This document shows, one piece after another, positions 5,105-51,846 of a stretch of 64,000 nt of DNA. A program made the position numbers and the translations under genes. Below the pieces are notes generated by a model. That model did no database searches. It was not told the DNA's origin and saw nothing but the letters and a program-made list of their open reading frames with translations. Within the stretch, counting starts at the first letter, position 1; each line of letters begins with the position of its first letter. Origin of the DNA: a virus (taxonomy: Duplodnaviria; Heunggongvirae; Uroviricota; Caudoviricetes); IMG/VR virus record IMGVR_UViG_3300033069_002010; one strand, 5' to 3'.

Positions 5105-6193
5105 ATGAGCTGTTTTGACTTAAAAGACATCAATTCGGAACTCAACAGGGTGAAAAACGCCATCTACAAACTTCCACTGAACTACGGTAGTATCGATCTG
5201 AGCTCGAAATTCATGAAAGACAGGCAGATAGCCAAGAAGATAATGAAGGCCAAGTTTCCCAAAAAAGGAAGGTCGGAAACCGAAATAGATGACGATCTGA
5301 ACAGGATCGTCTACGGCATAGACATCAGGAAAAGACTCGGACAGTCCTACAAGCCATATATCAGCGAGGCCGAATTCGAAGACGATGCAGACCAAAGGGC
5401 CGACAATCTTGAGGTGAGCGAAGACGGGTTTGTTCCCATCCTTAGGGATAATCCGATATTCGACGACATCGCCCTACTGAAGAGCGAAATAAGAATAGCC
5501 GCTTTCCAATTGGGAGAAAAGGGACAGTCCCTCGTCAAGGACATCGTTTCACTGACATCGCTTCTGGCGTCATCCCTACCGACGATGGCAGCCCTTATCG
5601 TGACCATCCCAATACCCAACATATCGGGAGCCTTGTCGATACTACTGATAGTCCTAAAGGCCATCGAGGATTTCTTCAACAAGATAAAGGATATTCTCCC
5701 CTATCTCGACATACTTTCTAAATTGGAACTCGTAATCGGACCAATCTATTTTGACACCATACAGAGCATCCTTTGCAACTACCTGAAGATTCTAGCGGAT
5801 GTCCTCTCAAAACTGAATCAGCTTTCCGCTCCCCTGTCGGCTCTTCTCAAAGGCAAAACACCAAGTGAAAGAATCACGGATGTCAACAATGCGAAAACAG
5901 CTGTTGAGACAGCACAAAAAAACCTGAATGAAGTTGGATGGTTCAAAACAATAGACGAAACAGGAGTTTCTGTTACAGGTGATACCAACACAAGAGGGGG
6001 TGATGCCCCAGCAGTCTACAAAAGCGATTATGGGGACGGATGGATATTGAACTCAAAGAAAAACCTCTACACCACAAACAAGTTCGGATCGAGACCCCCT
6101 AAGGAAATAGATTCACTTTGGAAGGCCGATTTGGAATCCAAATGGAAGGATTATACCGACGCCATCAACAAGGCAAAAAAATTGGCGAGCTAA
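5105..6193 (+). CDS. hypothetical membrane-associated protein
   Basis: 362 aa; central hydrophobic stretch (LTSLLASSLPTMAALIVTIPIP...). Confidence 0.5.
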   Translation: MSCFDLKDINSELNRVKNAIYKLPLNYGSIDLSSKFMKDRQIAKKIMKAKFPKKGRSETEIDDDLNRIVYGIDIRKRLGQSYKPYISEAEFEDDADQRADNLEVSEDGFVPILRDNPIFDDIALLKSEIRIAAFQLGEKGQSLVKDIVSLTSLLASSLPTMAALIVTIPIPNISGALSILLIVLKAIEDFFNKIKDILPYLDILSKLELVIGPIYFDTIQSILCNYLKILADVLSKLNQLSAPLSALLKGKTPSERITDVNNAKTAVETAQKNLNEVGWFKTIDETGVSVTGDTNTRGGDAPAVYKSDYGDGWILNSKKNLYTTNKFGSRPPKEIDSLWKADLESKWKDYTDAINKAKKLAS

Positions 6194-6504
6194 ATAAGCT
6201 TGTTGTAGATCGACACAGGTCGGTTGACCTGAACCCCATGCTGCCAATTTCCGACACGAAGGGCCTGCTTGTTCTGGAACTGACCCCTCAACTGTCCAGT
6301 CTCAAGATCGGTCAGGTAAATGTGGAACTGTTCGACATAATCATTGTCGTCCTCAGGGTCCTTGAAATACTCTGGATTGGATTCGAAATCGTCGATGTGG
6401 GTCATGACCCCCATTCCCCACCCGTGGGATTTCCTGAGGATTCTAATGATCCTGGTATAGTCATACCGATCCTCAAGCCATTCGTTGAATTTCCTGATCG
6501 TCAT
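6190..6504 (-). CDS. small protein, tandem paralogue A (MTIRKFNEWL N-terminus)
   Basis: 104 aa; N-terminus is near-identical to its neighbour 6501..6833; ATGA overlap. Confidence 0.5.
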   Translation of the reverse strand: MTIRKFNEWLEDRYDYTRIIRILRKSHGWGMGVMTHIDDFESNPEYFKDPEDDNDYVEQFHIYLTDLETGQLRGQFQNKQALRVGNWQHGVQVNRPVSIYNKLI

Positions 6505-6833
6505 TTTATTTCGGTTTGATAGAGAAAGAAAAGATCCCTTTTTCCAAATCCTTGGATGATATCATCCATGAATTCCATGACCCTGACATAGGACGGATTG
6601 TCCGTATACGAGTGGTAGTTCCTGACTCCATCCTTAGCCACGGTAAGTTCGAACTCGGTCTTGTATTCCTGGTTTATCAGATCCATATACCTATCCGCCG
6701 CCTTTTCCATGCTTCGGAAAGCCTCGACATCACAAACGTCACCGTACGAATATGTCCTTATCAGAACCACGACATCACCGGTGGAGGATCCTCTTGGGAC
6801 AATCAGTTCCTCGTTGAATTTTCTTATTTTCAT
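6501..6833 (-). CDS. small protein, tandem paralogue B (MKIRKFNEEL N-terminus)
   Basis: 110 aa; shares the N-terminal decapeptide with 6190..6504. Confidence 0.5.
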   Translation of the reverse strand: MKIRKFNEELIVPRGSSTGDVVVLIRTYSYGDVCDVEAFRSMEKAADRYMDLINQEYKTEFELTVAKDGVRNYHSYTDNPSYVRVMEFMDDIIQGFGKRDLFFLYQTEIK

Positions 6834-6835
6834 AT

Positions 6836-8221
6836 CTAATCTGCCGATTTTGAGTTTTCGGAAACTATCTGGTTGAAATTGTCGGCCGGATCGAAACTGT
6901 ACTTGGCGGAAAGCTTTCCGCTCATCTCTCCCCCGGAGAACCTGACCGAGATGTCACATCCTATCATAGGCTTATCCCCAATCTCCATCCTTATCTTTAT
7001 CATGAAATCGTTCATTTCCTCTTCCTTGTCATCGACGACCATTTTTACGTGATAGTCGAATTTGACGTTGATGTCATCATAGTTGTCCCTGAAGAATTTC
7101 CTGGACGGGACCTGATGGAACGAGTTTCCCTTGTTTCCAAGATAGAAGACTGGTCTTTCAAGACATCCGAGCTTCTCGACTATTGACTTGACAAGTTTCA
7201 TCTTGACCCTTCCCTTGGCAAGCTTGAATCCGTCCTCGAGCTTTTCTATGTCCCCCATGCTGGTCGCGGTAAGGGATTCGGTCAGAAGGTGCTCGAGTAT
7301 TTTGGAATTCAGAATGAAAATCTTCTTTTCCATCCATTCGCGGTAGACCCTTTCCGAATCGAGGAAACACTGGTCCCGGTTTTTCCATATCTCGGACATC
7401 AGATCCGAGAATTTAAGTATATTCTTATCAAATTCCCTTATATGCTCACCTAGGTTCTTAAACCTAGGATCCCTGTGTTTCAGTTCGAAATACTCGAAAT
7501 ACCCGAGGGAATCCATTCTCTGGGGTTCTATGAACTTTTCAATGTGTATCTGGATGTTCTTGTTGGCATTCTCATACATGATCTTGACCCAGTCCTGGAC
7601 CAGCTTGTCCCATTTGTTTATGTAGGCTTCCCCATACATCTTCTCGATGTCGCTTCCGATAAGATCGTCGGCAAACGTGTTGAATGATGATGTTTTGGAA
7701 GAACTCACCGATTTGTTCAAAAAGAAACTGAACTGTCTTCCGTCCTTCAGCTCTATCACGATATCCTCATTGTGATCCATATCCTTGTTGGGACCCAACC
7801 AATATATTCTTTTTATAAGCTGCTCGCCGAGCTTCTCATCGGGAAGAAGCTTGTCGATTATGTTCCTGGCGGTTATCCTGGCATCGACAAGGTCATTCCA
7901 GTCTGTCTCTATGTCGAACTTGACGTCGTTGAACACCCCATTTATCTTGGATGTCTCGTCGTCGATGACGCATCTATCATCCACAAACTTTCCGAGATGA
8001 AGACGATTTTTCGATAGGAGAAGATTCTTGAGATCGGTAAGGAAAACCTGTGAGTTTTCAGAATATCTAGCTTTTAATCCTCTGTCAAGAACGTTGTCGA
8101 GGAACTCGTTGTTCAGGAGTATCATGGATACGCAGATTTCGGATATCAGGTTTTTAGAACTGTATTTCTTATTTGGTTCTTTATTTAGTTGTTCTAAAAA
8201 AAATTCATATCTAGTTATCAT
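6836..8221 (-). CDS. hypothetical protein
   Basis: 461 aa ORF; no recognisable motif. Confidence 0.5.
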   Translation of the reverse strand: MITRYEFFLEQLNKEPNKKYSSKNLISEICVSMILLNNEFLDNVLDRGLKARYSENSQVFLTDLKNLLLSKNRLHLGKFVDDRCVIDDETSKINGVFNDVKFDIETDWNDLVDARITARNIIDKLLPDEKLGEQLIKRIYWLGPNKDMDHNEDIVIELKDGRQFSFFLNKSVSSSKTSSFNTFADDLIGSDIEKMYGEAYINKWDKLVQDWVKIMYENANKNIQIHIEKFIEPQRMDSLGYFEYFELKHRDPRFKNLGEHIREFDKNILKFSDLMSEIWKNRDQCFLDSERVYREWMEKKIFILNSKILEHLLTESLTATSMGDIEKLEDGFKLAKGRVKMKLVKSIVEKLGCLERPVFYLGNKGNSFHQVPSRKFFRDNYDDINVKFDYHVKMVVDDKEEEMNDFMIKIRMEIGDKPMIGCDISVRFSGGEMSGKLSAKYSFDPADNFNQIVSENSKSAD

Positions 8222-8321: not shown

Positions 8322-9965
8322 ATGGATATTAAATATTTCGAAGAGGAAATTTATAAAAATAGACCCAACCGATTAAAAGAGGGATTTGTCAAAAATAATT
8401 TTCCTGAGTTCTATGAGTTCATAACTGATAAATTTATCGGAGACACTTTTTTAGAAAAATTATATATTTTCTATAAAGGTATCTCAAAATGTAAATGTGG
8501 GAACAAAAATAAATTCATATCATTCAAAACTGGGTTTAGAAAACACTGTAGTATTAAATGTTCTAGTAACGACGAGTCAACTAGAGATAGGTATAAAAAA
8601 TCATGTCTTTCAAAGTATGGGGTTGAAAATATCTCTAAAAACACAGAAATAAAAAAGAAAAAAGAAGAGACATGTATTAAAAATTATGGAGTAAAATCAT
8701 ATTTTCTCACACAGGAATTAAAAGACATCATATATGAAAAATATGGAACTGATAACGTATTCAAAAACGAGGAAATTAAGAAAAAAATATCAGATTCAAA
8801 TATTAAGAAATATGGAAATAAAGTATCTATACTAAACACACAAATAAAAGAAAAGTCCAAGAAAACACTAATCGATAAATATGGTGTTGACAGTTACTCA
8901 AAAACGGATAGTTTCAAGTTAATGATGAAAAATTATAATGATGAAAAATATAAACAATCACTCGATGATAGTGAATATGAAATTATTCACAGAAATAGAT
9001 ATATTAATACATTAAAGCATATAAAGTGTGGGGAAACATTTGATATACAAACACAACTGATAAGAAAAAGAAACAATTCTAAATCTGAAATTTGCTTAGT
9101 ATGTAATCCATTTCAACCATCATATAAGGAAAGTGAATTATTCACATGGATAAGTGAGATCCACCCAAATGTTATCCATCATTTCAGAATTAAAAAATAT
9201 GAAATAGATATATACCTACCCGATCTAAAAATTGGATTCGAGTATAACGGCCTATATTGGCACTCTGAACTGAATAAAGAAAAAAACTACCACCAGGAAA
9301 AAACAAAATATTTTAAAGAAAATGGTATACAAATATACCATATATGGGAGGATGACTGGAAATATAAACAAGACATAGTAAAATCAATTATACTCAATAA
9401 AATTAGTAAAACCCCCAATAGAATTGGGGCTAGGAAATGTAAGGTAGTTGAGGTTTCCGATAAAATATCAAAAGATTTTCTAAATAAAAACCACCTCCAA
9501 GGATTTTGTGTCTCAAAATACAGACTTGGACTAGTATACGAAGGCAATATAGTAAGTCTAATAACACTTGGTAAAAAAAGAAACGGCAAATCATCCAATA
9601 AAGAATTTGAGTTACTTAGATTTGTATCTCTGATTAATCACAACATAGTTGGTGGGTTTTCAAAATTGATAAGTCATTTTATAAAAAAATACAAACCTAA
9701 TAGAATTGTGACATATTCTGATACATCTATTTCAAATGGGGATTTATATACAAAGGCTGGATTCACATACATATATTCAACAAAACCAAACTATTGGTAT
9801 TTTCTAAAAGACAGAAGATTTAATAGATTTTCATTCAGAAAATCAAATCTTATAAAAGAAGGATTTGATATCAAAAAAACCGAGAAGGAGATAATGTTTG
9901 AACGAGGATACAATAGAATATATGACTGTGGGTCAAATTTTTATGAAATAAATCTTAATATATAA
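8322..9965 (+). CDS. modular homing endonuclease, KYGV-repeat family with Vsr-like PD-(D/E)xK nuclease module
   Basis: Repeated motif of about 33 aa ending ...KYGV(E/D)N/S...; then DIYLPDLKIGFEYNGLYWHSE...IYHIWEDDW (Vsr/DUF559-like); C-terminal ARKC...NHLQGF domain shared with 45018..46916. Strongly AT-rich codon usage compared with its neighbours. Confidence 0.7.
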   Translation: MDIKYFEEEIYKNRPNRLKEGFVKNNFPEFYEFITDKFIGDTFLEKLYIFYKGISKCKCGNKNKFISFKTGFRKHCSIKCSSNDESTRDRYKKSCLSKYGVENISKNTEIKKKKEETCIKNYGVKSYFLTQELKDIIYEKYGTDNVFKNEEIKKKISDSNIKKYGNKVSILNTQIKEKSKKTLIDKYGVDSYSKTDSFKLMMKNYNDEKYKQSLDDSEYEIIHRNRYINTLKHIKCGETFDIQTQLIRKRNNSKSEICLVCNPFQPSYKESELFTWISEIHPNVIHHFRIKKYEIDIYLPDLKIGFEYNGLYWHSELNKEKNYHQEKTKYFKENGIQIYHIWEDDWKYKQDIVKSIILNKISKTPNRIGARKCKVVEVSDKISKDFLNKNHLQGFCVSKYRLGLVYEGNIVSLITLGKKRNGKSSNKEFELLRFVSLINHNIVGGFSKLISHFIKKYKPNRIVTYSDTSISNGDLYTKAGFTYIYSTKPNYWYFLKDRRFNRFSFRKSNLIKEGFDIKKTEKEIMFERGYNRIYDCGSNFYEINLNI

Positions 9966-9983: not shown

Positions 9984-10964
9984 TTGAAACACATAAAATC
10001 ATACAGGGTAAAATCATACCAGATTTTCGAATCTAGAACAGAGACCAAATTTGTGAACGTGGACTCGCTAGATGAGTTCAAAAAGTCATTTGAAGAGGAA
10101 TTCAAAAACGATCAGGGATGGACGGAAAAATTCGGGATATGGGATAAGTATTTCATAAACGGGACTTTCGAGGAATCGAAATACCTAGTATGTGATGGAG
10201 AAATAGTCGGTGGATTTCTGATCTATCATTCAGACATGTCGACATACTGCGACCACATCAGAAATTCCGAAACCACATCGGATATCAAAATTCACAGGAA
10301 TCCAGATGATTTCAGGGACGAGTCGGGGATCTATCTCGAATACATTTTCGTAAAACCAGAATGGAGAAACCAGGGATTGGGGAAACTGATGATATCCCAC
10401 ATAGAAAGCATCGGATACGATTACATGTGGGAAATGTCGGTTGAAAAGAAAGCATCGGGATACTGGATTGACAAGATAAAACGGGATATCCTGATGGAAT
10501 ACGAGGACTCCACCGAATCATTCGGAAGGACTTTCATGACATATAAGATTCTTGATAAAAAAATACTCGAAATAAAAAAAAATAAATGGAATCAATTCAA
10601 AGATATGTTCATCAAGATAGATGAGGATGAATACGATGATATTAAAGAAAAATGGAGGGATAGGAAGGAACAAATTACTAGATGGGAACTGAAATGGTTA
10701 TCCGATAATGACCTTATAGTAGATAAATATAATGATATATTAGGACGAGAAACATTTAACTACCTGACATTCAGTAAGTGGGGTTATCGTCTGAGCTTGT
10801 CGAAATATGATGATGGTTGGTTTTTAGTAAGGACTGGTAAAAAAAGTGAAACAACAACCGCTGACTTTGGTTTCAGAAAATACTTCAAGTGCGATCAATT
10901 TGATGGATTAAAAGCTTTGGTTAGGGAATGGATTAAGGTAAGGGGCAACCTGAAAAGTAAATAG
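9984..10964 (+). CDS. GNAT-family acetyltransferase domain protein
   Basis: Motif A-like FVKPEWRNQGLGKLMISHIE; 326 aa with an extra C-terminal domain. Confidence 0.5.
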   Translation: MKHIKSYRVKSYQIFESRTETKFVNVDSLDEFKKSFEEEFKNDQGWTEKFGIWDKYFINGTFEESKYLVCDGEIVGGFLIYHSDMSTYCDHIRNSETTSDIKIHRNPDDFRDESGIYLEYIFVKPEWRNQGLGKLMISHIESIGYDYMWEMSVEKKASGYWIDKIKRDILMEYEDSTESFGRTFMTYKILDKKILEIKKNKWNQFKDMFIKIDEDEYDDIKEKWRDRKEQITRWELKWLSDNDLIVDKYNDILGRETFNYLTFSKWGYRLSLSKYDDGWFLVRTGKKSETTTADFGFRKYFKCDQFDGLKALVREWIKVRGNLKSK

Positions 10965-10987: not shown

Positions 10988-11620
10988 ATGAGATATCTTA
11001 AACCATACCTGAAATACCTGGAATCCCTTCACATCGATCTTTCGATAGTGACCGTCGACATAAACGAATCACTCGGGGTTTTCTACGAGAACATACTCAA
11101 ATCGATAGGAGCCGAGGAGCAGGACATATACGGGACATTCAACCTTCCGAAAGACGACTTTGCCGACAAGCTGAATCTTGACCTCCTGACCAACAATCCC
11201 GAGTTCATAAACTCACTGTCGTCTATAGGACTGAAAAAATCAAACCTTTACAGCACCGAGGATTTTGAGACGTTTGTCAACAAGCCTTCAAGGTTTGTCC
11301 TGATTTATAGGGTTGAGGCAAACGAACTGGAAAATCCGACATTCATACTCTTCCAATCCTACAACCAGACTTTGGACAAGTGGGAGGATTCGAAGCTTTT
11401 CAAGGTCACCGGGGACATAAAGACCTTTTACGACAAGCTTTCCTCAAAGGTTATCGAGGTCGAGGACGGGGACAGCAAATACATCTACAACTCTTCCAAC
11501 GGAAACGAATGGATACTCCAGAATACCGAAAAGGAAAACGACACATTCAAGAAATATTTCAGGAAGGACGAGTTCGAGAAACTGATAAACGACAGGAAAG
11601 TCAAAATAAACATCATATGA
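10988..11620 (+). CDS. hypothetical protein (MRYLKPYLKYLES N-terminus)
   Basis: 210 aa; ends ...II* with the junction ATCATATGAGACAC into the next gene. Confidence 0.5.
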   Translation: MRYLKPYLKYLESLHIDLSIVTVDINESLGVFYENILKSIGAEEQDIYGTFNLPKDDFADKLNLDLLTNNPEFINSLSSIGLKKSNLYSTEDFETFVNKPSRFVLIYRVEANELENPTFILFQSYNQTLDKWEDSKLFKVTGDIKTFYDKLSSKVIEVEDGDSKYIYNSSNGNEWILQNTEKENDTFKKYFRKDEFEKLINDRKVKINII

Positions 11621-12450
11621 GACACGTAGAATCTTTTGAAAGCTTCATATTGGAAACCCTGAAATCGGATGACATAGACCTGGTCGAAAGGAAGCTTGAC
11701 ACCTTCTTCAAATCCAAAGGGTTCAACAAAAAGGACATGTTCAATTACGTCAATTTGCCACATTACACAATCCATTCTGATAGAAGACTAATCAGAAAGG
11801 AGATTGAAAAATTGGAAAATCCGACAGAGGAAACAATTGAACTTTATAAAAAACACAATGTCGACATCAATAAAAGTCTTCAATATTACAAGGATGCCTT
11901 GGAACAACATAAAAAAGGGGATATTTTTATTTTCACGTCACCAACCAAAAAAATAACCCCAGAATTCGTAGACGAATTTCTCAATTTGATAAAAAGCATG
12001 GGATATTTCGTAGCTACAGCCGGATCGTTCGAAACGAAATTGAAGGACAAGACCAAGATCAGGGAATATCTTCTCAGAAAAGGAAGAGGAGGCATACCGA
12101 ACAATATATCAATCTCAATTGAACCTTATTATGACACCCAAATCGAATTCGATGGTGAATATCTCTACCATACGACACCCAAAAAGGCATTGGACAAGAT
12201 AATGAGGGTCGGACTAAATCCCAAGTCAAAAAATACGGTCAGTTTCTATCCCGAAAGGGTTTATCTGTCACCGGATATGGAAAGTATGGAAAACATACTG
12301 CCCCAGTTGAAGGACAAGAAAAAAGATGAGGAATACGTCAGGCTAAGAATAAAGAATTTCCCTGGCTTGAAACTTTATAGGGACGTCAGGTTCAAAGGGG
12401 GATTCTACACATACAACTCAATACACCCGAAATACATAGAGATCATATGA
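11617..12450 (+). CDS. hypothetical protein; weak Tpt1/KptA-like C-terminus
   Basis: Start reassigned to the ATG at 11617 (MRHVESFESF...). The track ORF 11380.. is an upstream in-frame extension across the preceding gene. The C-terminus LYHTT...RVYLS loosely resembles the RNA 2'-phosphotransferase HGT...HLS region. Confidence 0.45.
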   Translation: MRHVESFESFILETLKSDDIDLVERKLDTFFKSKGFNKKDMFNYVNLPHYTIHSDRRLIRKEIEKLENPTEETIELYKKHNVDINKSLQYYKDALEQHKKGDIFIFTSPTKKITPEFVDEFLNLIKSMGYFVATAGSFETKLKDKTKIREYLLRKGRGGIPNNISISIEPYYDTQIEFDGEYLYHTTPKKALDKIMRVGLNPKSKNTVSFYPERVYLSPDMESMENILPQLKDKKKDEEYVRLRIKNFPGLKLYRDVRFKGGFYTYNSIHPKYIEII

Positions 12451-12956
12451 GACACCTGAAACGATTCGAATCCGTCACGACAGTCGAAGATTATCTTTAC
12501 AACCTATACGACACCGATCCTTACTACAAGACCTCGATTGGGGAAGATGTCCTGTATTTCGAGTTCGAATTCGATAGACCGAAGGAAAACATATACGAAA
12601 TATCCGAACAGTATTTCAAATCAAGAAGATTTAGGGATTATGTGGTCACGCACGAGGAGACGGATCTTGGATATCGGGTACTTGTCGTCAAAAAGGATTT
12701 TTACGAAAGACATACAGACTTACTTATCCAGAACATCAGAATGGATCCCCATCCGATAAACAAGGGACTCTCCAAAGAATTCCTGATATTCCCAAATGCG
12801 AAAATTGCCAGGCTCCCGAACAACTGCAGTCTGGCATATGGAATCAACCATTACATCAAGTGGGAATTCTGGCCGATGGACGATGTCGAAGATCCGATCA
12901 CAACCTACAGCGAAATATATCTGCAACTGCTTATTTACAGGCACTGCATCAGATAA
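12447..12956 (+). CDS. hypothetical protein (MRHLKRFES N-terminus)
   Basis: 169 aa; ATGA overlap; its first 27 nt are 24/27 identical to the start of the 44451 gene. Confidence 0.5.
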   Translation: MRHLKRFESVTTVEDYLYNLYDTDPYYKTSIGEDVLYFEFEFDRPKENIYEISEQYFKSRRFRDYVVTHEETDLGYRVLVVKKDFYERHTDLLIQNIRMDPHPINKGLSKEFLIFPNAKIARLPNNCSLAYGINHYIKWEFWPMDDVEDPITTYSEIYLQLLIYRHCIR

Positions 12957-13610: not shown

Positions 13611-14171
13611 ATGAATAACATGAATATGGAAGAACTGGTTCAATTAAGAACCAAAATGATCTTGGAAGGCAGGGATGTCACCGATATCAATTTCCTGATC
13701 GATTCGAAGGAAGAGGAATACCTCGACCACATCTTTGAAGGGACTTCAGGAACAGGCGGACCTTCGGGAGCTGCAGGAGCGGCGACCACAGGAATGGGAG
13801 GTGGTGGTGTCGCATACGGAACCGCAGCGGTTTCCGGAATGGGAGCGGTGATCAGCCCACAACCGTCATCACATGCTGGACAGACAATAAGCCCAGGATA
13901 CGAACAGGGAGGAGGAAAAACAGGATCGGGAGACATCGGAGTCCCATACAATACCGGTGGAACCAAGGTATTCCAGAAAGTTCCCGTGGACAACAGAAGA
14001 GGAAACAGCAAAAGAAGGAAAAACAAGATGTTGGCCGGTCTGAAAGGAATGTTTACAAAGAGACAAGATTTCACGGCAGGACAGGGAGAACAGCCTAAAT
14101 CCCCTAAAATAATGAACTTCCAGAACTTCAAAAAGGATGATCTGATGAAGATTAAAAAAGTAAGCCAATAG
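13611..14171 (+). CDS. glycine-rich low-complexity protein
   Basis: 186 aa; a G/A/T-rich segment of about 60 aa followed by a basic C-terminus. Confidence 0.4.
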   Translation: MNNMNMEELVQLRTKMILEGRDVTDINFLIDSKEEEYLDHIFEGTSGTGGPSGAAGAATTGMGGGGVAYGTAAVSGMGAVISPQPSSHAGQTISPGYEQGGGKTGSGDIGVPYNTGGTKVFQKVPVDNRRGNSKRRKNKMLAGLKGMFTKRQDFTAGQGEQPKSPKIMNFQNFKKDDLMKIKKVSQ

Positions 14172-14172: not shown

Positions 14173-14631
14173 ATGAGACAAATCAAATCATTTTTAGAAT
14201 ACTATGATATTACTTACCACATCGGGGAACCGAAACTCGATTCCAGAAGAAAACAGGACATAGAGACAACCAACAAACAGATGATTACCAAGGATTGGTT
14301 TAAGAGTCACCCATTCCCCGGAGTCACAAAGGTGGTGACCCATGACAAGTCGGTCGACATCTATTTCGGAAGGGATTCGTACATATCAATCTACGCACCG
14401 GGAACAGTCGAATATTCGAAAACCGGAGAAACCGGAACCGTTCGGAAGAAATCCTCACAGGAATCAATCACATGGATGATGCGGGGAAGCGACAAGGATG
14501 ATGTCCTTGACAACAAGGAGGAATTCATATCATGGGTTGACAAGCTTCTCATAAAATTCGGAATGGACAGGAGTGTCCTGAAAGACCTTGATAGGACAAT
14601 AGAAGAAAACAGGCGCATTTACAGACACTAA
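14173..14631 (+). CDS. hypothetical protein (MRQIKSFLEY N-terminus)
   Basis: 152 aa. Confidence 0.45.
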   Translation: MRQIKSFLEYYDITYHIGEPKLDSRRKQDIETTNKQMITKDWFKSHPFPGVTKVVTHDKSVDIYFGRDSYISIYAPGTVEYSKTGETGTVRKKSSQESITWMMRGSDKDDVLDNKEEFISWVDKLLIKFGMDRSVLKDLDRTIEENRRIYRH

Positions 14632-40759: not shown

Positions 40760-41492
40760 CTTTGAATTTTTTATTTATTAAATAATTTGATAAAATCGGT
40801 TTTTTTTCAGTATCCTCCCATTTACAAGCAACCCTCAAATCATCACCAATAAGAGCCACTGTGATATATGTGTTCTCACCACACCTGAAAGTGGCGGTGG
40901 TTTCCTCAAGCTTGATCGGTTCAATCTCCTTTTCGGGATCACAGTCGAAGTTATCGATTTCCTTGATGAAATCAAAAGTTTCGGTTTTATAGTATTTTCC
41001 CTTCAAAAGTTTCAGAAACGGATCGGTGATTTTCAAAACCTCATTTTTCCTTACCCCATGAACATCCTTATACTTGAATCCTATGGTTATGTGCAGATCT
41101 ATCTCAGGAAGCCCATATCTCTTCCTAACCTCCTGGAGTTTTTCCGAACGGACCACCACAAAATATGCCCGGTTTCCAGACCTTTCCGCAGTTCCGATTC
41201 CCATCATCTGAACATCATCGAATTCGAAATCGAACACCGACTCAAGTGAGTTGACAAACCTATCAGGTCCCATCTCTTTCAAGATTCGGTTGTAATCCAT
41301 GACATTTATTACAGTTATATGATAATGCCCTTGATCCCTGTTTTGCTGATATTGGGTATATACGGTAAATTCCTCGTCACCAAGTATCCCCCTCATCTGT
41401 TCGAGATAAGGATGGATAGAGTCTTTCCAAATGTTTACTCCGACATAATTATTCCCAACTGTGTCCTTAATGTATTCTACTCTGTAAATCAT
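40752..41492 (-). CDS. 2H phosphoesterase (LigT / cyclic phosphodiesterase-like)
   Basis: Two H-x-T-x motifs (GHYHITV and DLHITIG) about 90 aa apart; ATGA overlap with the upstream CCA-adding enzyme gene. Confidence 0.55.
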   Translation of the reverse strand: MIYRVEYIKDTVGNNYVGVNIWKDSIHPYLEQMRGILGDEEFTVYTQYQQNRDQGHYHITVINVMDYNRILKEMGPDRFVNSLESVFDFEFDDVQMMGIGTAERSGNRAYFVVVRSEKLQEVRKRYGLPEIDLHITIGFKYKDVHGVRKNEVLKITDPFLKLLKGKYYKTETFDFIKEIDNFDCDPEKEIEPIKLEETTATFRCGENTYITVALIGDDLRVACKWEDTEKKPILSNYLINKKFKDV

Positions 41493-42737: not shown

Positions 42738-43235
42738 ATGAAAGACATTAAAAAGTTTGAGGCGTTTGGTGACATTTATCCCGAAACCAGGTTGGACTAC
42801 GACTGGAAAAGGGAATTTCTCGAAATACGGGAACTTTTCTACAACATCGAGGAAAATCTACCCGATGAGAGTTTGGTCGACTTTTCGGCTGGATGGAGGT
42901 CATCGATGAATAACCAAATGTTCCCATGTTACATAAATAAGGCGGGCGAGATTATGGGGAATGACGAAGTGATAGAAAAAACCTGCGGCACATACGCCAA
43001 CTTTCTCATAAGAATCACTATAGAACCGAGATTCAAAACCCGTAACTACTCCCCATTCAAAATCTCAAATTCCGAGTCCTTTTTCGGGGAAAACGCTCAA
43101 ATCGTGGTAGACATAATATCAAGACTCAAATACATAACAAAAGGACTGAACGAATACTCAATGGGGATAACATTCAAAGATAATCTCATCTATATATATT
43201 TTTTAAGAAACAACAACGAAAGAAAACAGATATGA
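42738..43235 (+). CDS. hypothetical protein (MKDIKKFEAF N-terminus)
   Basis: 165 aa. Confidence 0.45.
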   Translation: MKDIKKFEAFGDIYPETRLDYDWKREFLEIRELFYNIEENLPDESLVDFSAGWRSSMNNQMFPCYINKAGEIMGNDEVIEKTCGTYANFLIRITIEPRFKTRNYSPFKISNSESFFGENAQIVVDIISRLKYITKGLNEYSMGITFKDNLIYIYFLRNNNERKQI

Positions 43236-44029
43236 CCGAAAAAATAAAAAAAGCCTATGACCTAGCTAAATGGGCTCACGAAGGACAGACAAGAAAATTT
43301 ACAGGAAAACCGTATTTCGATGAACATGTCGTCAAGGTTTGGGAGGAAACGAAACGATACGGGGCCACCGAAGAAGAGGAATGTGCATCGCTGCTCCACG
43401 ACACGGTTGAGGACCAGCCCGATAAGGTAAGCCTAAAAATGATCGAAGAGGAATTCGGACCAAAAGTCTCTGGATACGTCGGAGAACTGACATCAGACGA
43501 GGATAGAATAAGGGAAATCGGAAAAGCCCAATACATGAAGGAAAAACTTTCCAAAATATCACTAGGATCACTCAAGGTCAAACTAGCCGATAGGAAATGC
43601 AACATTTCCGACATGATGACGGCTCCCGAAAAATTCAGGAACAAATACTACCCAGAGACAAGAACGATGATGGAAGGACTGGAAGGAAGGAATCTTCCCG
43701 AAGCCCAGGAAAAATTGGCCGATGACATAAACCAAATCCTAGACGAGGTTAAGTCGAAATTTTTTGAATCCAAGAAACACTCATTAAAATATATAAAATT
43801 GTACGAAGACTTTAAACAGAACAACATAACCCACGACGATATCATAAAATGTATAGACTCAGGTGGAGTTATATATGCCAACATAGTTAGGAATTTTCCT
43901 GAAAACGTTCCCGAAGAACCTCTTCACCCAGTATCAGTTGATGATGATGGGTTAATAACCGTTGAGAAAGAAGGGAGAAACTATGAAGTAGATATAAGAG
44001 ATGTCAAGAAAATAGAATATAACAAATAA
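43232..44029 (+). CDS. HD-domain (p)ppGpp hydrolase, SpoT/RelA-N-like small alarmone hydrolase
   Basis: AHEGQTRKFTGKPYFDEHVVKV...ASLLHDTVED matches the SpoT HD hydrolase signature (H...GQ.R..G.PY..H...VA...HD..ED). Confidence 0.7.
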   Translation: MTEKIKKAYDLAKWAHEGQTRKFTGKPYFDEHVVKVWEETKRYGATEEEECASLLHDTVEDQPDKVSLKMIEEEFGPKVSGYVGELTSDEDRIREIGKAQYMKEKLSKISLGSLKVKLADRKCNISDMMTAPEKFRNKYYPETRTMMEGLEGRNLPEAQEKLADDINQILDEVKSKFFESKKHSLKYIKLYEDFKQNNITHDDIIKCIDSGGVIYANIVRNFPENVPEEPLHPVSVDDDGLITVEKEGRNYEVDIRDVKKIEYNK

Positions 44030-44448
44030 TGGAATTTCAAACTAAAAGCGGAGGATTAGTCAGGACTGGATATTTTCACTCGAGAATATCAGGAGATCAG
44101 TTTTTTATAACCATAGACCAATCATCAAACATAAATAATGGTGATGATGAAGCTACCCTCGTCCTAACTAACCAGGAAGTTAGAGACCTAATATCACTTC
44201 TCAACAACCACTTAATCTACTCGGAAGGGAAACCGTTTGTCATCCTGGCAGATCCTCTTCTCCACCCCTCAGTTCACATACATGTGGTCACCGATGAGGG
44301 TGAGAAAGAGATAGAAAAGGATCCGGATCTGGTAAACCCCTTCCTGAACGGAACCCAAGAGACAACACCAGGGGAAATACACCTGGATAAGGCAGACTAT
44401 TTCAAAAGCATCCTGCCAAAACTGACCAACGTAAAACCTATTCAATAG
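44029..44448 (+). CDS. hypothetical protein
   Basis: 139 aa. Confidence 0.4.
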   Translation: MEFQTKSGGLVRTGYFHSRISGDQFFITIDQSSNINNGDDEATLVLTNQEVRDLISLLNNHLIYSEGKPFVILADPLLHPSVHIHVVTDEGEKEIEKDPDLVNPFLNGTQETTPGEIHLDKADYFKSILPKLTNVKPIQ

Positions 44449-44450
44449 AC

Positions 44451-45023
44451 ATGAAACACCTGAAACTCTTCGAATCCAAGAACTGGGAAATAGTATTCGA
44501 CCCACACATCACAAGAATAGAATGGAACGGTCTGCCATCTTACCTACGCGACAAAACACTTATCGACTTCACACAGAGAGATATAAAACAAATAATCGGA
44601 TTTTTGGAGCATTTCGTCCCGATGTCAATGATTAAGATGCCCGAAAATACTGACAAAAAATTGGATTATGACCAAGGTAAATTTCGTGGTTCAATAGATG
44701 TGTCAACGGAAAGATCGAGCCGACCCAAAAACTATTATGACAATATCAATATATTGAAGTTAGATGATGAATACTTCATTGTATATTGCACCCACGGATA
44801 CCCAAGCGGACAACGAACCCAGGTATTCAAATGTGACCAAATCGAAGGACTGATCGAACTATTGGGGATGATGTTTGAGGGATATCCCAAAAAGGACTAT
44901 TCGAGCCAAAACTACATAACCAAAATAAAAAATCTAATCAATTCAATAGACATCGAAAAAACAGATCCAAAAAAACTGAAATCACTAGAGGAATTCCTAA
45001 TAAAATGGAAATCTGATTCATGA
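44451..45023 (+). CDS. hypothetical protein (MKHLKLFES N-terminus)
   Basis: 190 aa. Confidence 0.45.
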   Translation: MKHLKLFESKNWEIVFDPHITRIEWNGLPSYLRDKTLIDFTQRDIKQIIGFLEHFVPMSMIKMPENTDKKLDYDQGKFRGSIDVSTERSSRPKNYYDNINILKLDDEYFIVYCTHGYPSGQRTQVFKCDQIEGLIELLGMMFEGYPKKDYSSQNYITKIKNLINSIDIEKTDPKKLKSLEEFLIKWKSDS

Positions 45024-46916
45024 TAAAACCATTTCAAATTTTATCTTACCACAATCCCATATCTTATTGATTCTATTTTTCTCAACATATTTTGATTCAG
45101 TTAAGGTAGTCTTGAGTTTTGATTTTCTAAATCTTGACTTATGGACCCTCTTACCATCCACAACATACTTATAATCTGGATTTGAGAAATTAATAAGTTT
45201 AAAACCTATGGTTTCATATAATTTTCCATTAGACCAGTCCCTGTCAGCATAACTAACTATCCTAGTAGGCCCATAGTTTTTGATGAAATTTTTCAAAAGT
45301 CTAGATGCACCACCAATAACCGATGTATCTATCTTATTACAAAACCTGGACAAATTCCATTCCATATTATCCATTTTTTTCCTACCTTCGGAATGATCAA
45401 ATGTCATAATAGAAACAAGTTCCCCTCTATAGTACAATCCTATTTTAACCACAGAATTCACAAATCCTTGTATGTGATTCTCATCAAGAAAACACCGAAC
45501 TATTTTTGGATCATTTATAACCCTAACTTCACATTTTCTAGCATGAATCATGGTATTAGTAATACCAATCCAATTTCTGATTTGACTCTTAATAATATTT
45601 GTCCTATGCGACCAGTCGTCTTCCCATATATTTATAATATGAATTCCTTTGTCCAAAAAATATTTTCTTTTATTTAAGTGATAATTTCTATCTCTGTATT
45701 TTTCTGAATGCCAGTATAGTCCATTAAACTCAAATCCTATTTTCAAATCGGGAAGATAAATATCTATTTCCAACCCATCTCTATATGATCCAATAACCTC
45801 TCCTTGATATATTGATTTTATATAATTCAGCACTTGTTTTTCCTTTATTGAATATAACTCTCCGACGGGATTACAAATGACACATAAGGGCACTCTACCT
45901 CTTATCCTATTAAAATATAGATCAGTTGATATTTCAAAATTGTGTGGTTTATCTAAATCACATTTGAATAAAGAAACACTATTACCAACATAAGTAATAT
46001 ATGAATCGTGTTTAGTTATTGAAAATTTAATTCTTATTTCATCAGACTGGGAAACATGTTCAACATTATATTTATCAAGATTTGTTTTCCTTACTTTATC
46101 AAGTATAATAGGTGATTGTAATGGTGATTCTACACCATATTTTTCAATATTTGTCTTTTTTATCTGTTCTCTAATCTCGGGTGACTTAAAAACATTATCA
46201 TAGCCATACCTTTCTATATTTGTGTTTCTAATGATCTGCTTACAATCTTCACTTTTTAAGTTTGAGTCAACACCCCACTTTTCTATACTTGATTCTCTTC
46301 TTTTTTTCTGAAATTCTTCACTTTGTGAAACATATTCTACACCATATTTTTTTAAATTTGTCTCTTTGGACCTCCGAATAAAGTCATCTGTGCCAATATA
46401 ATACTCACTACCATATTTCAACATGTTAGTCTCAGTTACCTTAACCTTGAAATCATCGGTTTTCGCATAACTGTCTAATCCATATTTTTCCAAACAAGTA
46501 TTCCTTATTTTTGACTTGACTACATCACTATACATTTGATGTTCAACCCCATGATTCCTGATTAACGTTTGTTTGGACTTCTCTTTAACAGTATTTAATT
46601 GAAATGGATTATCCACACCATATTTGGATTGACATACATCCTTTATTTTCTGATTGGAACATTGATACCTACTACATGATGATTTATTTATATCTTTTAT
46701 AGATAAATTATATCGTTTATAAGGTTGTTTAAATTCCAATCCACAATAATCACATTTTACATCAACAACTATCTTGGATCCAATAGTGATATCTTTGATA
46801 TTAACTGTTATAATATCACCTATTTTTGGATTATCTAAATCATATTTATTTCTTAATTTAAGACAGTTCCTTTTAGTTAAGACTATTTCTACTTTTTCGG
46901 TTAATAGCATAAACAA
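45018..46916 (-). CDS. modular homing endonuclease, KYGV-repeat family with Vsr-like nuclease module
   Basis: Nine or more KYGV(D/E)xxxQ repeats, then LEIDIYLPDLKIGFEFNGLYWHSE...IWEDDW and ARKCEVRVI...NHIQGF, paralogous to 8322..9965. AT-rich. Confidence 0.7.
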   Translation of the reverse strand: MFMLLTEKVEIVLTKRNCLKLRNKYDLDNPKIGDIITVNIKDITIGSKIVVDVKCDYCGLEFKQPYKRYNLSIKDINKSSCSRYQCSNQKIKDVCQSKYGVDNPFQLNTVKEKSKQTLIRNHGVEHQMYSDVVKSKIRNTCLEKYGLDSYAKTDDFKVKVTETNMLKYGSEYYIGTDDFIRRSKETNLKKYGVEYVSQSEEFQKKRRESSIEKWGVDSNLKSEDCKQIIRNTNIERYGYDNVFKSPEIREQIKKTNIEKYGVESPLQSPIILDKVRKTNLDKYNVEHVSQSDEIRIKFSITKHDSYITYVGNSVSLFKCDLDKPHNFEISTDLYFNRIRGRVPLCVICNPVGELYSIKEKQVLNYIKSIYQGEVIGSYRDGLEIDIYLPDLKIGFEFNGLYWHSEKYRDRNYHLNKRKYFLDKGIHIINIWEDDWSHRTNIIKSQIRNWIGITNTMIHARKCEVRVINDPKIVRCFLDENHIQGFVNSVVKIGLYYRGELVSIMTFDHSEGRKKMDNMEWNLSRFCNKIDTSVIGGASRLLKNFIKNYGPTRIVSYADRDWSNGKLYETIGFKLINFSNPDYKYVVDGKRVHKSRFRKSKLKTTLTESKYVEKNRINKIWDCGKIKFEMVLS

Positions 46917-46979: not shown

Positions 46980-48581
46980 TTATTTATCATCCAAATCAAC
47001 CTTAATCTGCTTGACACGACCGTTTGTCTTCGAAATTGGAACCTCTGTCCCGATTGATATCAAAAGTATGTTACCCTTGATTTGCGACAAGTCAAGACTA
47101 TCACAGTAACCATCGGTCAACACAAGAGTATTGAACTCGTTGAAGTGCTGGGAGACGTAGTTTACAGCCGGTTGAAGAGCTGTACCACCAAGACCTTTGA
47201 TTGGAATACTTTCCAACTTACGCTTTGACTTGATGTTCTGTACCCACTTGACTTGAGTATCCGCCTCAATCAGATTGACCTCTATGTCGTTCCTGTAAAT
47301 ATAGGAAAGAACCCTTTCGAATGTCCCACCCATTGAACCTGACGTATCAAGAATACAGTTGATTTTGGTCTTGATCCTACGGTTTCCTTTCAGACCGTCA
47401 ATCTGACGACGGTTAGGCTTAACGATTGTCTTGGTCTTTTTCGTACCGAAAATCAGGTTCGAAACCGAACGCTTGATGTATTTCAGGTAATCCTTACGCT
47501 TCTTACGGAGCTTGTTGAGTGTCTGTTCGATATTACCAGCTTCCAAACCACGGGCCTGGAGACGGTCCATCGCGTCCTTAACCATTGACTCCCTCATTTC
47601 CTCAGGAACCTCATCGTTCATGTGAACATCAAGATACTGCCCCTGGTTGTTCTCAAGGTTGTCAAGAATTTGGTCGAGAGACCAAGTGTCTATCTTTTCC
47701 TTTTCGTTCTTAGGATTCTTACCATAGGCACCGTAAGATGGTTTTCCAGAAGAATCCTTTCCGCCTTCACCACCTGTACCCTGACAGTCTGGACAATCCT
47801 GACCGGACTGTCCGTGTTGGTGTCCTCCTTGACCCTGTCCGTTCTGACCTTGTTGACCCTGTTGACCCTGTCCGTTCTGACCCTGACTGTCTCCTTCATC
47901 ACCATCCTGACCCTGTCCGTTCTGACCCTGTTGTGGTTGACCTTGGCCCTGCTGTGGCTGACCCTGCTGGGATTGTCCTGTCTTACCCGAACCGTTGCAG
48001 GTTTTGCACTGTCCGTTCTTCTTCTGTTTCTTCTGATGCTTTTCCTGCTCTTCACGAAGCCACTCATAGAGTTCCTCGAAAATCAGCTTTCCTGGATACT
48101 CGGAGGGAACGAAAAGAGCCATGTTGCGTCCATGTTCATCTTTCGGTATCTCGACATAGTTCTGAGGAATGTCCTCCCAAATGATATGATTGATAATCAT
48201 ATCCTGGGCGATGTTGGAAAGCTTGTGATCGTACTGACCTGTAATCGTACGCTTGGGGTGGTTCCACAAAAGGTGGAAATCCTCATGGAGAGTGATGAAA
48301 TTGACCTCTTTCTGGGAAAGTCGGTTCAGGAACTCCGAACTGTAATAGAACTGCATACCCTTGGCAGTCATGTTGACCGCACAGGTATCGATATCCTTTC
48401 TCTCATGGAATGAGATAAACAGGTTGAAATTCCCATAATAGGGAAGTGAAACTCGAGTGTCAATTAACATCTGTTGGATCGACTCCATCAGTTTCTCGTG
48501 GATATTTTTTAAATACATACTTTTAATATTATGATTTATACAAAAATAATGAATTTGGTTTAAATGAACAAAAAATTTCAT
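46980..48581 (-). CDS. DUF2201-type putative metallopeptidase / VWA-domain protein with Gln/Gly-rich repetitive linker
   Basis: N-terminal HEDFHLLWNH (HExxH); central QGQ/GQN low-complexity tract of about 90 aa; C-terminal VWA with MIDAS ILDTSGSMGG...LTDG. Confidence 0.7.
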   Translation of the reverse strand: MKFFVHLNQIHYFCINHNIKSMYLKNIHEKLMESIQQMLIDTRVSLPYYGNFNLFISFHERKDIDTCAVNMTAKGMQFYYSSEFLNRLSQKEVNFITLHEDFHLLWNHPKRTITGQYDHKLSNIAQDMIINHIIWEDIPQNYVEIPKDEHGRNMALFVPSEYPGKLIFEELYEWLREEQEKHQKKQKKNGQCKTCNGSGKTGQSQQGQPQQGQGQPQQGQNGQGQDGDEGDSQGQNGQGQQGQQGQNGQGQGGHQHGQSGQDCPDCQGTGGEGGKDSSGKPSYGAYGKNPKNEKEKIDTWSLDQILDNLENNQGQYLDVHMNDEVPEEMRESMVKDAMDRLQARGLEAGNIEQTLNKLRKKRKDYLKYIKRSVSNLIFGTKKTKTIVKPNRRQIDGLKGNRRIKTKINCILDTSGSMGGTFERVLSYIYRNDIEVNLIEADTQVKWVQNIKSKRKLESIPIKGLGGTALQPAVNYVSQHFNEFNTLVLTDGYCDSLDLSQIKGNILLISIGTEVPISKTNGRVKQIKVDLDDK

Positions 48582-48634: not shown

Positions 48635-49507
48635 ATGATTATAACAAAGGTAACACAAATGAGGATAAATAAAAAAAATATTAATCACTTCACGGAATTG
48701 GGATATGAGGTAAATCTGAAGGATGTAATATGTATAGATCCGACCGAATTAAGTAAAGGTTCAAATGTTAGAATCGATGTATCATGTGATAGGTGTGGAT
48801 TAGAAAGGAATATAAAATATCAGTCCTATATATTCAATATAGAGAGAAGTCTTGACGGAAAAACATACACATGTGACCGATGTTCTCATGAAAAGATAAG
48901 GGAAACCAATATTAAAAAATATGGGACCGAATACTATTCAAAAACCAAAGATTTCATCAATAAGATAAAAAAAACATCTATGGAAAGATTCGGACTTGAA
49001 CATTTCTCTAAGACAGAGGATTATATAAAAAATAGAACCAAAACAAATATGGAGAAATATGGGGTGGAAAATCCCTTTCAACTAACAGATCTGATCAAAT
49101 CATCAATGATGGATAAATATGGAGTAGACCATCCGTCAAAAATAAAAGACTTAATCCCAAATAGAGAATTAAAACGCCGAAAAACAAAAGAAAAAAATGG
49201 AAATTGGGTTAAAATTGATGATCTAAAAGACTGGAACATTTATAAGAATAGAGTTAGAACATTAACATCAAGAAATAAAAAGGAACTTTTTGAAAATTGG
49301 GACGGGAAAGACTATTACGATGGAGAATATATTGAGACATACTCAAACCTAAATCATAATGACCCAAAATACCCAACCATTGATCATAGAATATCAATAT
49401 ACCATGGTTTCGTCAACAAAATAGAACCAGAGTTAATATCTGATATATCAAATCTTGTTATCACCAAAAGAATTCTAAATATAAAGAAGTCTAACAAAGA
49501 CATTTAG
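48635..49507 (+). CDS. modular homing endonuclease, KYGV-repeat family with C-terminal HNH nuclease
   Basis: CxxC pair, five or more KYG repeats, then NHNDPKYPTIDHRISIYHGF...N...N (HNH motif). AT-rich. Confidence 0.7.
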   Translation: MIITKVTQMRINKKNINHFTELGYEVNLKDVICIDPTELSKGSNVRIDVSCDRCGLERNIKYQSYIFNIERSLDGKTYTCDRCSHEKIRETNIKKYGTEYYSKTKDFINKIKKTSMERFGLEHFSKTEDYIKNRTKTNMEKYGVENPFQLTDLIKSSMMDKYGVDHPSKIKDLIPNRELKRRKTKEKNGNWVKIDDLKDWNIYKNRVRTLTSRNKKELFENWDGKDYYDGEYIETYSNLNHNDPKYPTIDHRISIYHGFVNKIEPELISDISNLVITKRILNIKKSNKDI

Positions 49508-51462: not shown

Positions 51463-51467
51463 AAAAC

Positions 51468-51500
51468 AAAGGACAACGGGGTTGAATCCGTTGTCCGCAA
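51468..51500 (-). terminator. intrinsic terminator
   Basis: Stem GGACAACGG/CCGTTGTCC followed on the minus strand by TTTGTTTT, between the 51532 gene and trpS. Confidence 0.5.
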
Positions 51501-51531
51501 ATATAGTTCAATTTTCCGACTAAAAAAATTC

Positions 51532-51846
51532 CTAATAGGATTCGTCGTGTTCCGCGTAGTAGTCCGACCAGTAATCGCGTAGTTCATCAATGGCCTTTGC
51601 CAAGGTATATGAATAATATCTGGTAATATTCAACGGTTCCCTTGAACCGAGTGATTTTTTAACCCTGGCGTTAAGTTCGACATTGAACTCCCCATTCATC
51701 TCATCCGCCCTGGATTTGGACTCCGATTCGGTCGGATACAGCTCAACCACCTCATTGCTGTTGCGATCATAGACGCAGAATACCTCTTCAGGCTTCATGC
51801 CTGATGAAAGGCTTTCGTTGAATTTTTTAATCTTCATATGTGACAT
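51532..51846 (-). CDS. hypothetical protein (MSHMKIKKFNESL N-terminus)
   Basis: 104 aa. Confidence 0.4.
   Translation of the reverse strand: MSHMKIKKFNESLSSGMKPEEVFCVYDRNSNEVVELYPTESESKSRADEMNGEFNVELNARVKKSLGSREPLNITRYYSYTLAKAIDELRDYWSDYYAEHDESY

Follow-up and report, generated by a model that had tools for sequence, protein, structure and literature searches.

A recurrent N-terminal decapeptide on about one tenth of the proteins of Mahaphage-like huge phages and its likeness to the capsid targeting sequence of T4

Introduction

Encapsulins use a short terminal peptide and a flexible linker to steer unrelated cargo enzymes into an HK97-fold shell. Here we describe a recurrent decapeptide (hereafter the tag) at the N-terminus of otherwise unrelated open reading frames (ORFs) in a 64,000-nucleotide stretch of DNA from an uncultured tailed phage (IMG/VR record IMGVR_UViG_3300033069_002010; the whole stretch is called the window below), and compare it with known targeting peptides. 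Those of encapsulins differ from the tag: most are found at the C-terminus, their partner is the shell protein itself, and they are not cleaved off. The closest known system is the capsid targeting sequence of T4, which, like the tag, takes up about ten N-terminal residues, starts with Met-Lys, has an aromatic/hydrophobic pattern with a Glu near its end, and stands on otherwise unrelated proteins in a phage with gp20/gp21/gp22/gp23-type head assembly. The T4 internal proteins ipII and ipIII open with MKTYQEFIAEA and ipI with MKTFKEF, and Alt and gp24 bear short N-terminal propeptides. The core proteins of T4 associate via N-terminal targeting propeptides of 10-20 residues that are removed by gp21 (PMC5694885), and the internal proteins of T-even phages are diverse anti-restriction and defence-countering proteins of which the targeting sequence is the sole common part (PMC3012670).

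The phiKZ-like giants (SPN3US, phiKZ and 201phi2-1) are likewise large phages with tens of different head proteins. Many of these carry N-terminal propeptides that are cut after Glu by a T4-like prohead protease, and the paralogous head proteins gp53 and gp54 of SPN3US have identical N-termini (PMC5694885). These propeptides differ from the tag, however, in that they are mostly longer than 100 residues, share no one common decapeptide and are cut at motifs such as ALE or SLE (PMC5694885), and the clade described here is T4-like by its portal and capsid protein families.

A preliminary description of the window, made from the sequence alone, had noticed the tag on 12 ORFs. It likened the tag to the T4 targeting sequence, as a possible mark of proteins that are packaged and injected, and offered a translation-initiation constraint on leaderless mRNAs as the alternative.

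Results and Discussion

Distribution of the tag

The tag is virus-specific and clade-wide, and it is found on about 10% of the proteins of Mahaphage-like huge phages of the T4 superfamily. The window was connected to these phages through its T4-type topoisomerase II medium subunit, which it encodes along with a T4 gp6-like baseplate wedge protein. In tblastn searches the best matches of the topoisomerase were the uncultured huge phages LR745206 (635 kb, 65% identity), LR756502, LR756500, LR756504 and LR756501/3 (735 kb), while all remaining phages stayed below 38%. The largest genomes reported by Al-Shayeb et al. (2020), of 634, 636, 642 and 735 kb, were assigned to the Mahaphage clade, whose predicted hosts are Bacteroidetes, and these huge phages are rich in translation genes (PMC7162821). 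Judging from these similarities, we assign the window to a Mahaphage-like huge phage of the T4 superfamily.

The preliminary description had made its reading depend on an enrichment of the motif at gene starts, and on this point it is upheld: 8 of the 87 window genes scored above the 99th percentile of shuffled N-termini, compared with a mean of 0.87 and a maximum of 5 in 1000 shuffles. The core of the motif, [ILMV][KR]x[FY][ENLM][ESAG][FLWYVIK], occurs 11 times in the six-frame translation of the window, and six of these occurrences sit 2-3 residues behind the start Met of a long ORF. The genome of LR745206 was taken whole and scored with a matrix for which the 12 instances of the window were the sole training set. 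At a cut-off of at least 8 bits, 89 of its 904 N-termini (9.8%) carried the tag, against 8.3 when residues 2-16 were shuffled, and only 0.5-0.8% of the internal windows of its proteins scored as high. As a control for circularity, the fixed-register matrix that picked out the 8 window genes above was built unsupervised from all 904 N-termini of LR745206, none of them selected; pooled in this way, they still display K2, H/Y3, L/I4, K5, F/Y7, E8-9 and F10.

The back-translated pattern ATGAARYAYYTNAARNNNTTYAAYGAR was found at no fewer than 120 IMG/VR loci, against 1 for the codon-scrambled order. Among the matches listed, 126 of 132 open an ORF, and 116 of the 120 listed loci have genes homologous to LR745206 or to the window. 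The tag-bearing IMG/VR contigs stem from many different samples. The tag is present in LR756504 and in the 735-kb LR756501. No tagged gene was seen in a sampled 50-kb piece of LR756500, so that its spread among the Mahaphages at large is either uneven or under-sampled. A 41-kb portion of T4 likewise showed no tag.

Across 596 Gb of genomes from bacteria and archaea, 29 stretches matched the pattern, about 16 of them from one metagenome-assembled genome (MAG), GTDB JALOAD01, 'Candidatus Muiribacterium halophilum'. Because the proteins on its contigs are 60-73% identical to those of LR745206, we take this MAG to contain a mis-binned phage of the present clade. A host-derived signal was ruled out, as real cellular genomes are without the tag. 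The phage contigs of the MAG contain head-to-tail arrays of LRR-like paralogues, with at least 8 genes per 8 kb, each opening with MKY[LI]KxFNE. The tag peptide strings had no match in the searchable full-text literature, in which 'N-terminal motif' was also not found together with a huge-phage term.

Anatomy of the tag and nature of its carriers

A tagged protein has three parts: the tag itself, which is a detachable helix at the N-terminus, short, basic and amphipathic; an acidic linker rich in indels; and the protein proper. Over 359 non-redundant instances the consensus reads M-K(80%)-[Y/H](86%)-[L/I](98%)-K(88%)-[K/R]-F(87%)-[N/E](94%)-[E/S], and the information content is at background beyond position 9-10. 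An aromatic residue occupies position 7 in 258 of the 359 tags. Minor classes have the forms MK[HY]LKxYK[LI]FES and M-I-K-K-[FY]-x-[EQ]-F-I-x-E. Orthologues retain the tag, which varies among them within the consensus.

The division into three parts is best seen in the family of the clade-conserved protein encoded at 6836-8221(-), which has 1167 homologues. In an alignment of 61 of these, columns 1-13 are the tag (Y7 in 55, F10 in 60 and E12 in 59 sequences), columns 14-34, of which 40-97% is gaps, form a linker rich in indels, and from column 35 on lies the conserved core. The suggestion in the preliminary description that the N-terminus might be an amphipathic helix agrees with the AlphaFold model of this protein (mean pLDDT 87.8), in which residues 2-11 are helical with modest confidence, residues 9-17 have pLDDT below 50 and a confident globular body follows. 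A Foldseek search of the PDB with this model gave nothing better than E = 0.047, and the fold may be a new one. With a hydrophobic moment (muH) of 0.63-0.69, which about 1% of shuffles reach, the consensus helix is strongly amphipathic. Homologues free of the extension were found for one CCA-adding enzyme (opening at the conserved ...DIIP), one NUDIX protein (opening at the first strand) and one LRR-like protein; the LR745206 homologue of the tagged LRR-like paralogues (19905-20588) is without the tag. Signal peptides of the Sec, Tat or lipoprotein type have a basic N-region with a hydrophobic core of 7-15 residues behind it, or else a twin-arginine motif or a lipobox. This identity was rejected for the tag, which leads into a polar acidic linker and precedes a membrane-like stretch in only 1 of 89 carriers.

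The carriers are mutually unrelated, soluble and mostly acidic proteins, for the most part ORFans, with a few enzymes among them (CCA-adding, NUDIX and Tpt1-like). The median pI in LR745206 is 4.7 for tagged and 5.6 for untagged proteins (P 1e-11), and the acidic fraction at residues 11-25 is 0.23 and 0.14, respectively (P 3e-14). Membrane-like proteins make up 1 of 89 tagged against 69 of 737 untagged proteins (P 0.004), and one tagged protein exceeds 500 aa, compared with 57 untagged ones. A Pfam domain was found in only about 5 of 103 carriers, and these belong to different families (NUDIX, DUF6576, Toprim_2 and MazE-like); sequence searches of the PDB with four large tagged LR745206 proteins gave no match.

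One explanation for the common N-terminus would be that the carriers are very old paralogues and that it is the last recognizable part of a common fold. Tagged genes are indeed often adjacent (22 pairs in LR745206 against 8.7 expected), and some sub-families are clear tandem duplicates. Nevertheless, the tag precedes unrelated known folds (CCA-adding enzyme, NUDIX, LRR-like, Tpt1-like), some homologues are tagless, and the indel-rich linker, modelled with low confidence, parts the tag from the core. Carrier lengths run from 65 to 543 aa, and for 79 of 103 carriers, once trimmed, BLASTP finds no relative within the two genomes. The claim of the preliminary description that the proteins share nothing else holds in the window as well, where no pair of the 14 carriers matched at E < 0.01 once the first 14 residues had been cut. 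A paralogue family is ruled out by these trimmed-protein comparisons, and we regard descent from one ancient fold as highly improbable.

Selection on the peptide

At no position of the tag does codon usage depart from that of gene bodies or from that of the corresponding position in untagged genes, and all synonymous codon families are used. Ser is written by AGY and TCN alike (TCC, AGC, TCA or AGT in the window), and Leu is CTG or CTT in the window, with its 39% G+C, and mostly TTA in relatives of 29% G+C. This free use of synonymous codons shows that selection acts on the peptide. A constraint at the level of nucleotides (leaderless initiation, an RNA element or a recombination cassette), or a by-product of A+T-rich composition, might be suspected from the predominance of A+T-rich codons in the tags of the 29% G+C relatives and from a TTAATATATA-like box near several tagged starts. 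Yet the window spells the same peptide with different codons, the box also stands ahead of untagged genes, including the baseplate wedge gene, and composition-preserving shuffles and the codon-scrambled pattern match 10 to more than 100 times less often. In addition, at least 7 of the 12 tagged genes have a start that overlaps the upstream gene's stop codon or lies only a few bases from it; these are thus operon-internal and cannot be leaderless. The leaderless-mRNA constraint of the preliminary description is therefore rejected, a composition artefact is ruled out by the shuffles, the scrambled pattern and the codon usage, and any explanation at the nucleotide level has a negligible chance of being right.

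Alternatively, the decapeptide could act as a nascent peptide that eases the step from initiation to elongation, or that serves a phage-specific translational control, in a host without use of Shine-Dalgarno sequences. No Shine-Dalgarno sequences were visible upstream of the window genes, and the strict distance of the aromatic residue from Met1 suits a process specific to the N-terminus. The length of the tag is about that of a chain reaching the constriction of the exit tunnel. Also compatible are the predicted Bacteroidetes hosts and the many translation genes of these phages (PMC7162821), with a glutamyl-tRNA synthetase (GluRS) and a CCA-adding enzyme in the window itself. However, the genes for abundant structural proteins (capsid, portal and baseplate) and for core replication are untagged, the carriers being mostly accessory ORFans; an expression enhancer needs no acidic, indel-rich linker, and homologues free of the extension would be unexpected. 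We consider a role in translation improbable.

On both strands, most operon starts, that of the baseplate wedge gene included, have the TTAATATATA-like box at 10-45 nt upstream. The starts concerned include 875, 1168, 4577, 5105, 8221, 8322, 10988, 13611, 16297, 16400, 22724, 27399, 42738 and 49568, among others. As a marker of tagged or leaderless genes the box was rejected because it does not discriminate, preceding tagged and untagged operon starts alike and at variable distance. It is probably a phage promoter element, its sequence being reminiscent of the -10-only T4 late promoter TATAAATA.

Capsid targeting and other destinations

The clade has a T4-type head module. In LR745206 the portal protein matches Portal_T4 (E = 3e-57) and the capsid protein matches Gp23 (E = 2e-26), and directly upstream of the capsid gene, at 198546-200669, a protein of 707 aa is encoded. 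Its first ~170 residues resemble a gp21-like prohead protease, with GEFDHP and VSSRA motifs and a weak Peptidase_S77 match. The middle is a run of near-perfect 14-residue repeats, NIxYSEY[LI]AEN[LV]DK, and a long poly-acidic tract follows. This protease-scaffold fusion was found at 118 IMG/VR loci with 65-86% identity and 9-11 repeats, in which the positions Y, E, Y, A and E are invariant at 99-100% across homologues. A gp21-like candidate for the prohead protease to be expected from the preliminary description is thus present in the relatives, fused to the scaffold, though none was found inside the window.

Several features join the tag to this module. Every scaffold repeat contains the T4 protease site (L/I)-x-E, and its core Y-S-E-Y-I-A-E is close to Y-Q-E-F-I-A-E of the T4 targeting sequence. 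After the repeats, 68 of 79 homologues have K[LI][NF]E[SNA], most commonly KLFES or KLNES, and the pentapeptide K[LI][NF]ES of this tail is the one that ends the tags. In the capsid protein, S-I-N-E-N immediately precedes the stretch aligned with the maturation site of T4 gp23, and in the small protein at 93266-93520 of LR745206 the tag leads directly into a segment with homology to the capsid N-arm. Moreover, the minor class M-I-K-K-[FY]-x-[EQ]-F-I-[KE]-E-[SA] nearly equals MKTYQEFIAEA, and the minor classes, about 15% of tags, match T4 MKT[YF]xEF(IAE) at 6 of 9 positions.

The segment of the capsid N-propeptide and N-arm, SGMGAV..AQP..LAG.T...GSGD[VIL]G, was also observed in small proteins, at 13611-14171(+) of the window and at 554784-555284, 93266-93520 and 291407-291880 of LR745206; among these is a stand-alone copy of the entire capsid delta domain. 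The version at 13611-14171, an untagged ORF of 186 aa whose segment is homologous to a gp23-like N-arm and which lies in the same operon as the tagged ORF at 14173-14631, reads SGMGAV..PQP..AGQT...GSGDIG. These small proteins may be capsid-associated decoys or accessory head proteins.

From the sequence and its likeness to T4, we tentatively propose as the best explanation that the tag is a T4-like capsid targeting sequence. The basic tag helix would dock, during head assembly, on a prohead core formed by the gp21-like protease fused to its scaffold of 9-11 acidic 14-residue repeats. Once the shell is closed, the protease would cut behind the conserved Glu (Phi-x-E | S/N/E), at a site of the kind that also occurs in the repeats and tail of the scaffold (the latter K[LI][NF]E|S) and in the propeptide of the capsid protein (SINE|N). 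Once mature, the proteins would remain in the head and leave together with the DNA, so that a set of early-acting proteins would be ready in advance. We further speculate that the basic tag, with three Lys and one Glu, could pair with the acidic repeat, with three acidic residues and one basic residue, and that the repeat array could be a multivalent loading rack.

A number of observations weigh against this proposal. The head module was seen in the relatives only, outside the window. The major class, with the consensus MK[YH]LKKFNES, agrees with T4 only at M1, K2, the hydrophobic position 4 and F7, most tags have Phe in place of Leu/Ile at P3, and T4 ipI-III score between -1.6 and 1.4 bits with the window-trained matrix. 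Only 21% of the tags have a canonical (L/I)-x-E whose Glu falls at residue 7-13 (controls 5%), and the F-E-S subclass, about one third of the tags, does not fit the site at all, having Lys, Arg or Thr at P3. A relaxed Phi-x-E-small with Glu at residue 7-13 is found in 72% of tags against 10% of controls, but since F-[NE]-[ES] is itself part of the selecting matrix, there is some circularity in this figure.

The cargo also departs from that of T4. It is markedly acidic, with 85% of the LR745206 carriers below pI 6, unlike the basic T4 proteins IPII and IPIII, and carriers include enzymes as well as large tandem families: the CCA-adding and NUDIX enzymes have obvious roles in the cytoplasm, and in one phage tagged LRR-like paralogues stand in tandem by the dozen. 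The scaffold differs as well, being fused to the protease and built from 9-11 tandem repeats. About 90 proteins are tagged per genome, against the three internal proteins of T4 with Alt and a few head proteins that bear short N-terminal propeptides. The head of SPN3US is reported to contain about 50 different proteins (PMC7411985), and by that figure about 90 cargo species would be a large but conceivable number for a 635-kb phage. The proposal of the preliminary description, that the tag marks proteins for packaging and injection as in T4, is therefore supported in part: the T4-type head module, the detachable helix with its linker and the T4-near minor class speak for it, and the share of only 21% of canonical sites and the acidic cargo speak against it.

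The tag could instead be the address for a partner other than the prohead, either as an N-terminal degron through which a host or phage protease of the ClpXP or Lon type clears a class of accessory proteins at a set time, or as a docking peptide for a phage-made compartment, a membrane patch or a chaperone hub. The detachable helix, the linker, the unrelated soluble cargo, the strict register and the virus specificity would suit any targeting peptide equally. Small acidic ORFans in tandem arrays resemble typical early host-takeover genes, and the cytoplasmic enzymes among the carriers and the strongly amphipathic consensus helix fit such an address as well. The pattern M-basic-hydrophobic-hydrophobic recalls an N-terminal recognition motif of ClpX, and the N-terminal membrane helix of Escherichia coli MreB, MLKKFRGMF, has a similar Lys-Lys-Phe pattern. 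Membrane helices of the MreB/MinD type are, like the tag, short, basic and amphipathic with a high hydrophobic moment. They differ, however, in being degenerate in sequence and in lacking a conserved acidic or polar end, whereas the tag belongs to one viral clade and has a nearly invariant N/E-E-S end, which together with its tight conservation would be unneeded for membrane binding. No candidate receptor was identified in this analysis, and an address of this kind would not explain why the tag resembles the T4 sequence, the scaffold repeat and the K[LI][NF]ES site. A destination outside the prohead is thus possible, if rather unlikely.

Whether for the capsid or for another destination, the tag is probably the zip code of a so far unknown viral sorting system that covers about one tenth of the proteome and is read by a multivalent receptor. 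The labelled set comprises about 90 mostly acidic ORFans together with RNA- and NAD-related enzymes. In one version the receptor would be the protease-scaffold with its 9-11 repeats, and the product a pre-packaged starter proteome that is ejected with the DNA; in the other the destination would lie outside the capsid, for example a compartment or a proteolytic timer. Either way, no N-terminal sorting signal on the scale of a proteome would have been described in a bacteriophage before. If loading into the capsid is correct, phages of 0.5-0.7 Mb deliver dozens of ready-made proteins with their DNA, which would give a new view of their huge gene content, their large capsids and the arms race with host defences, and about 10% of their unknown genes would be labelled at once as virion-delivered effectors. 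If it is not, the tag would belong to a viral sorting or timing system without a described phage counterpart. In practical terms, the tag is a simple sequence marker of the clade, which exposed the mis-binned 'bacterial' MAG in GTDB, and a tag of 9-10 residues, used with its receptor, could be developed into a means of loading capsids with proteins.

Tagged genes of the window

All 12 ORFs named in the preliminary description are present with the N-termini quoted there; for ORFs on the minus strand, its coordinate is the low end of the ORF and not the start codon. It missed two carriers with diverged tags, the gene at 6836-8221(-) and that of the CCA-adding enzyme at 41489-42697(-), which brings the window to 14 carriers among ~87 genes. 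Searches of the tagged window ORFs against Pfam and PHROGs gave no significant family, the only signal being a weak Tpt1/KptA one for 11617-12450.

Three carriers lie together on the minus strand. The clade-conserved protein of 461 aa (6836-8221) opens with the diverged tag MITRYEFFLEQL, its orthologues with MKWL[KR]xYxLFxE[SA]. The start of the 110-aa ORF at 6501-6833 (MKIRKFNEEL) is 2 nt past the stop of this gene, and the start of the 104-aa ORF at 6190-6504 (MTIRKFNEWL) overlaps the stop of 6501-6833. On the plus strand, 10988-11620 (210 aa, MRYLKPYLKYLES; orthologues MRY[IL]xxYKx[FY]KES) is the first gene of a three-gene tandem array. It is followed by 11617-12450 (277 aa, MRHVESFESFILE), which has a weak signature of Tpt1/KptA (ADP-ribosyltransferase fold), LYHTTP...GLNP, and by 12447-12956 (169 aa, MRHLKRFESV), each joined to its upstream gene by an ATGA overlap. 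The 152-aa ORF at 14173-14631(+), MRQIKSFLEY, starts 1 nt past 13611-14171.

Two further carriers on the plus strand have orthologues in LR745206: a Lys/Glu-rich helical protein of 339 aa at 22724-23743 (MQIRKYESFIEE), whose orthologue opens with MKYVRTFESF, and a protein of 160 aa at 27399-27881 (MILRYRKFMEGY), whose orthologue opens with MKYLKMFES. The 76-aa ORF at 40529-40759(-), MSKIKKVFES, has its start overlapping the end of 40752-41492. The CCA-adding enzyme at 41489-42697(-) has an N-terminal extension of the tag type, MKVLVNYEKFLEN (relatives MI[IL]KKYKxFLES), and its real start is Met27 of the long ORF. The remaining carriers are at 42738-43235(+) (165 aa, MKDIKKFEAF), at 44451-45023(+) (190 aa, MKHLKLFESK; start 2 nt past 44029-44448) and at 51532-51846(-) (104 aa, MSHMKIKKFNES). 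The last of these probably starts at the second Met (51837), giving MKIKKFNES.

Setting of the tagged genes

The window has ~39% G+C and is densely packed with genes on both strands; no tRNA genes were found in it. Megablast of positions 16000-40000 and tblastn of the tagged ORF at 12447-12956 gave no match in the phage collection, an exact 49-mer of the window gave none in IMG/VR, and no contig encoding the topoisomerase product was on record. An identical copy of the product of 6836-8221 was found on metagenome contigs of up to 102.6 kb, and in a Logan contig an independent gene call gave the same ORFs of 277, 210, 169, 152, 110 and 104 aa.

Besides GluRS and the CCA-adding enzyme, the window encodes an SPFH protein. 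Genes for RNA repair and translation cluster at 40752-41492, 41489-42697, 43232-44029, 11617-12450, 27892-29499 and 9984-10964. This set comprises a 2H phosphoesterase, the CCA-adding enzyme, an HD-domain protein, the weakly Tpt1/KptA-like protein and the glutamyl-tRNA synthetase, and a GNAT acetyltransferase is located directly upstream of the tagged tandem array. The genes at 31034-32911, 36698-37861 and 46980-48581 encode the SPFH/Band-7 protein (625 aa), an ATPase (phrog_1297) and a DUF2201 metallopeptidase with a VWA-like domain.

The DUF7487 family, which has the look of homing endonucleases, is present in several copies (8322-9965, 45018-46916, 48635-49507 and 60531-61478), one with a REase_MTES_1575 match and one with a Mom-like domain. 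Two of the copies, 8322-9965 and 48635-49507, sit in stretches of low G+C (27% at 8-10 kb and 33% at 48-50 kb), which suggests that these are selfish mobile insertions.

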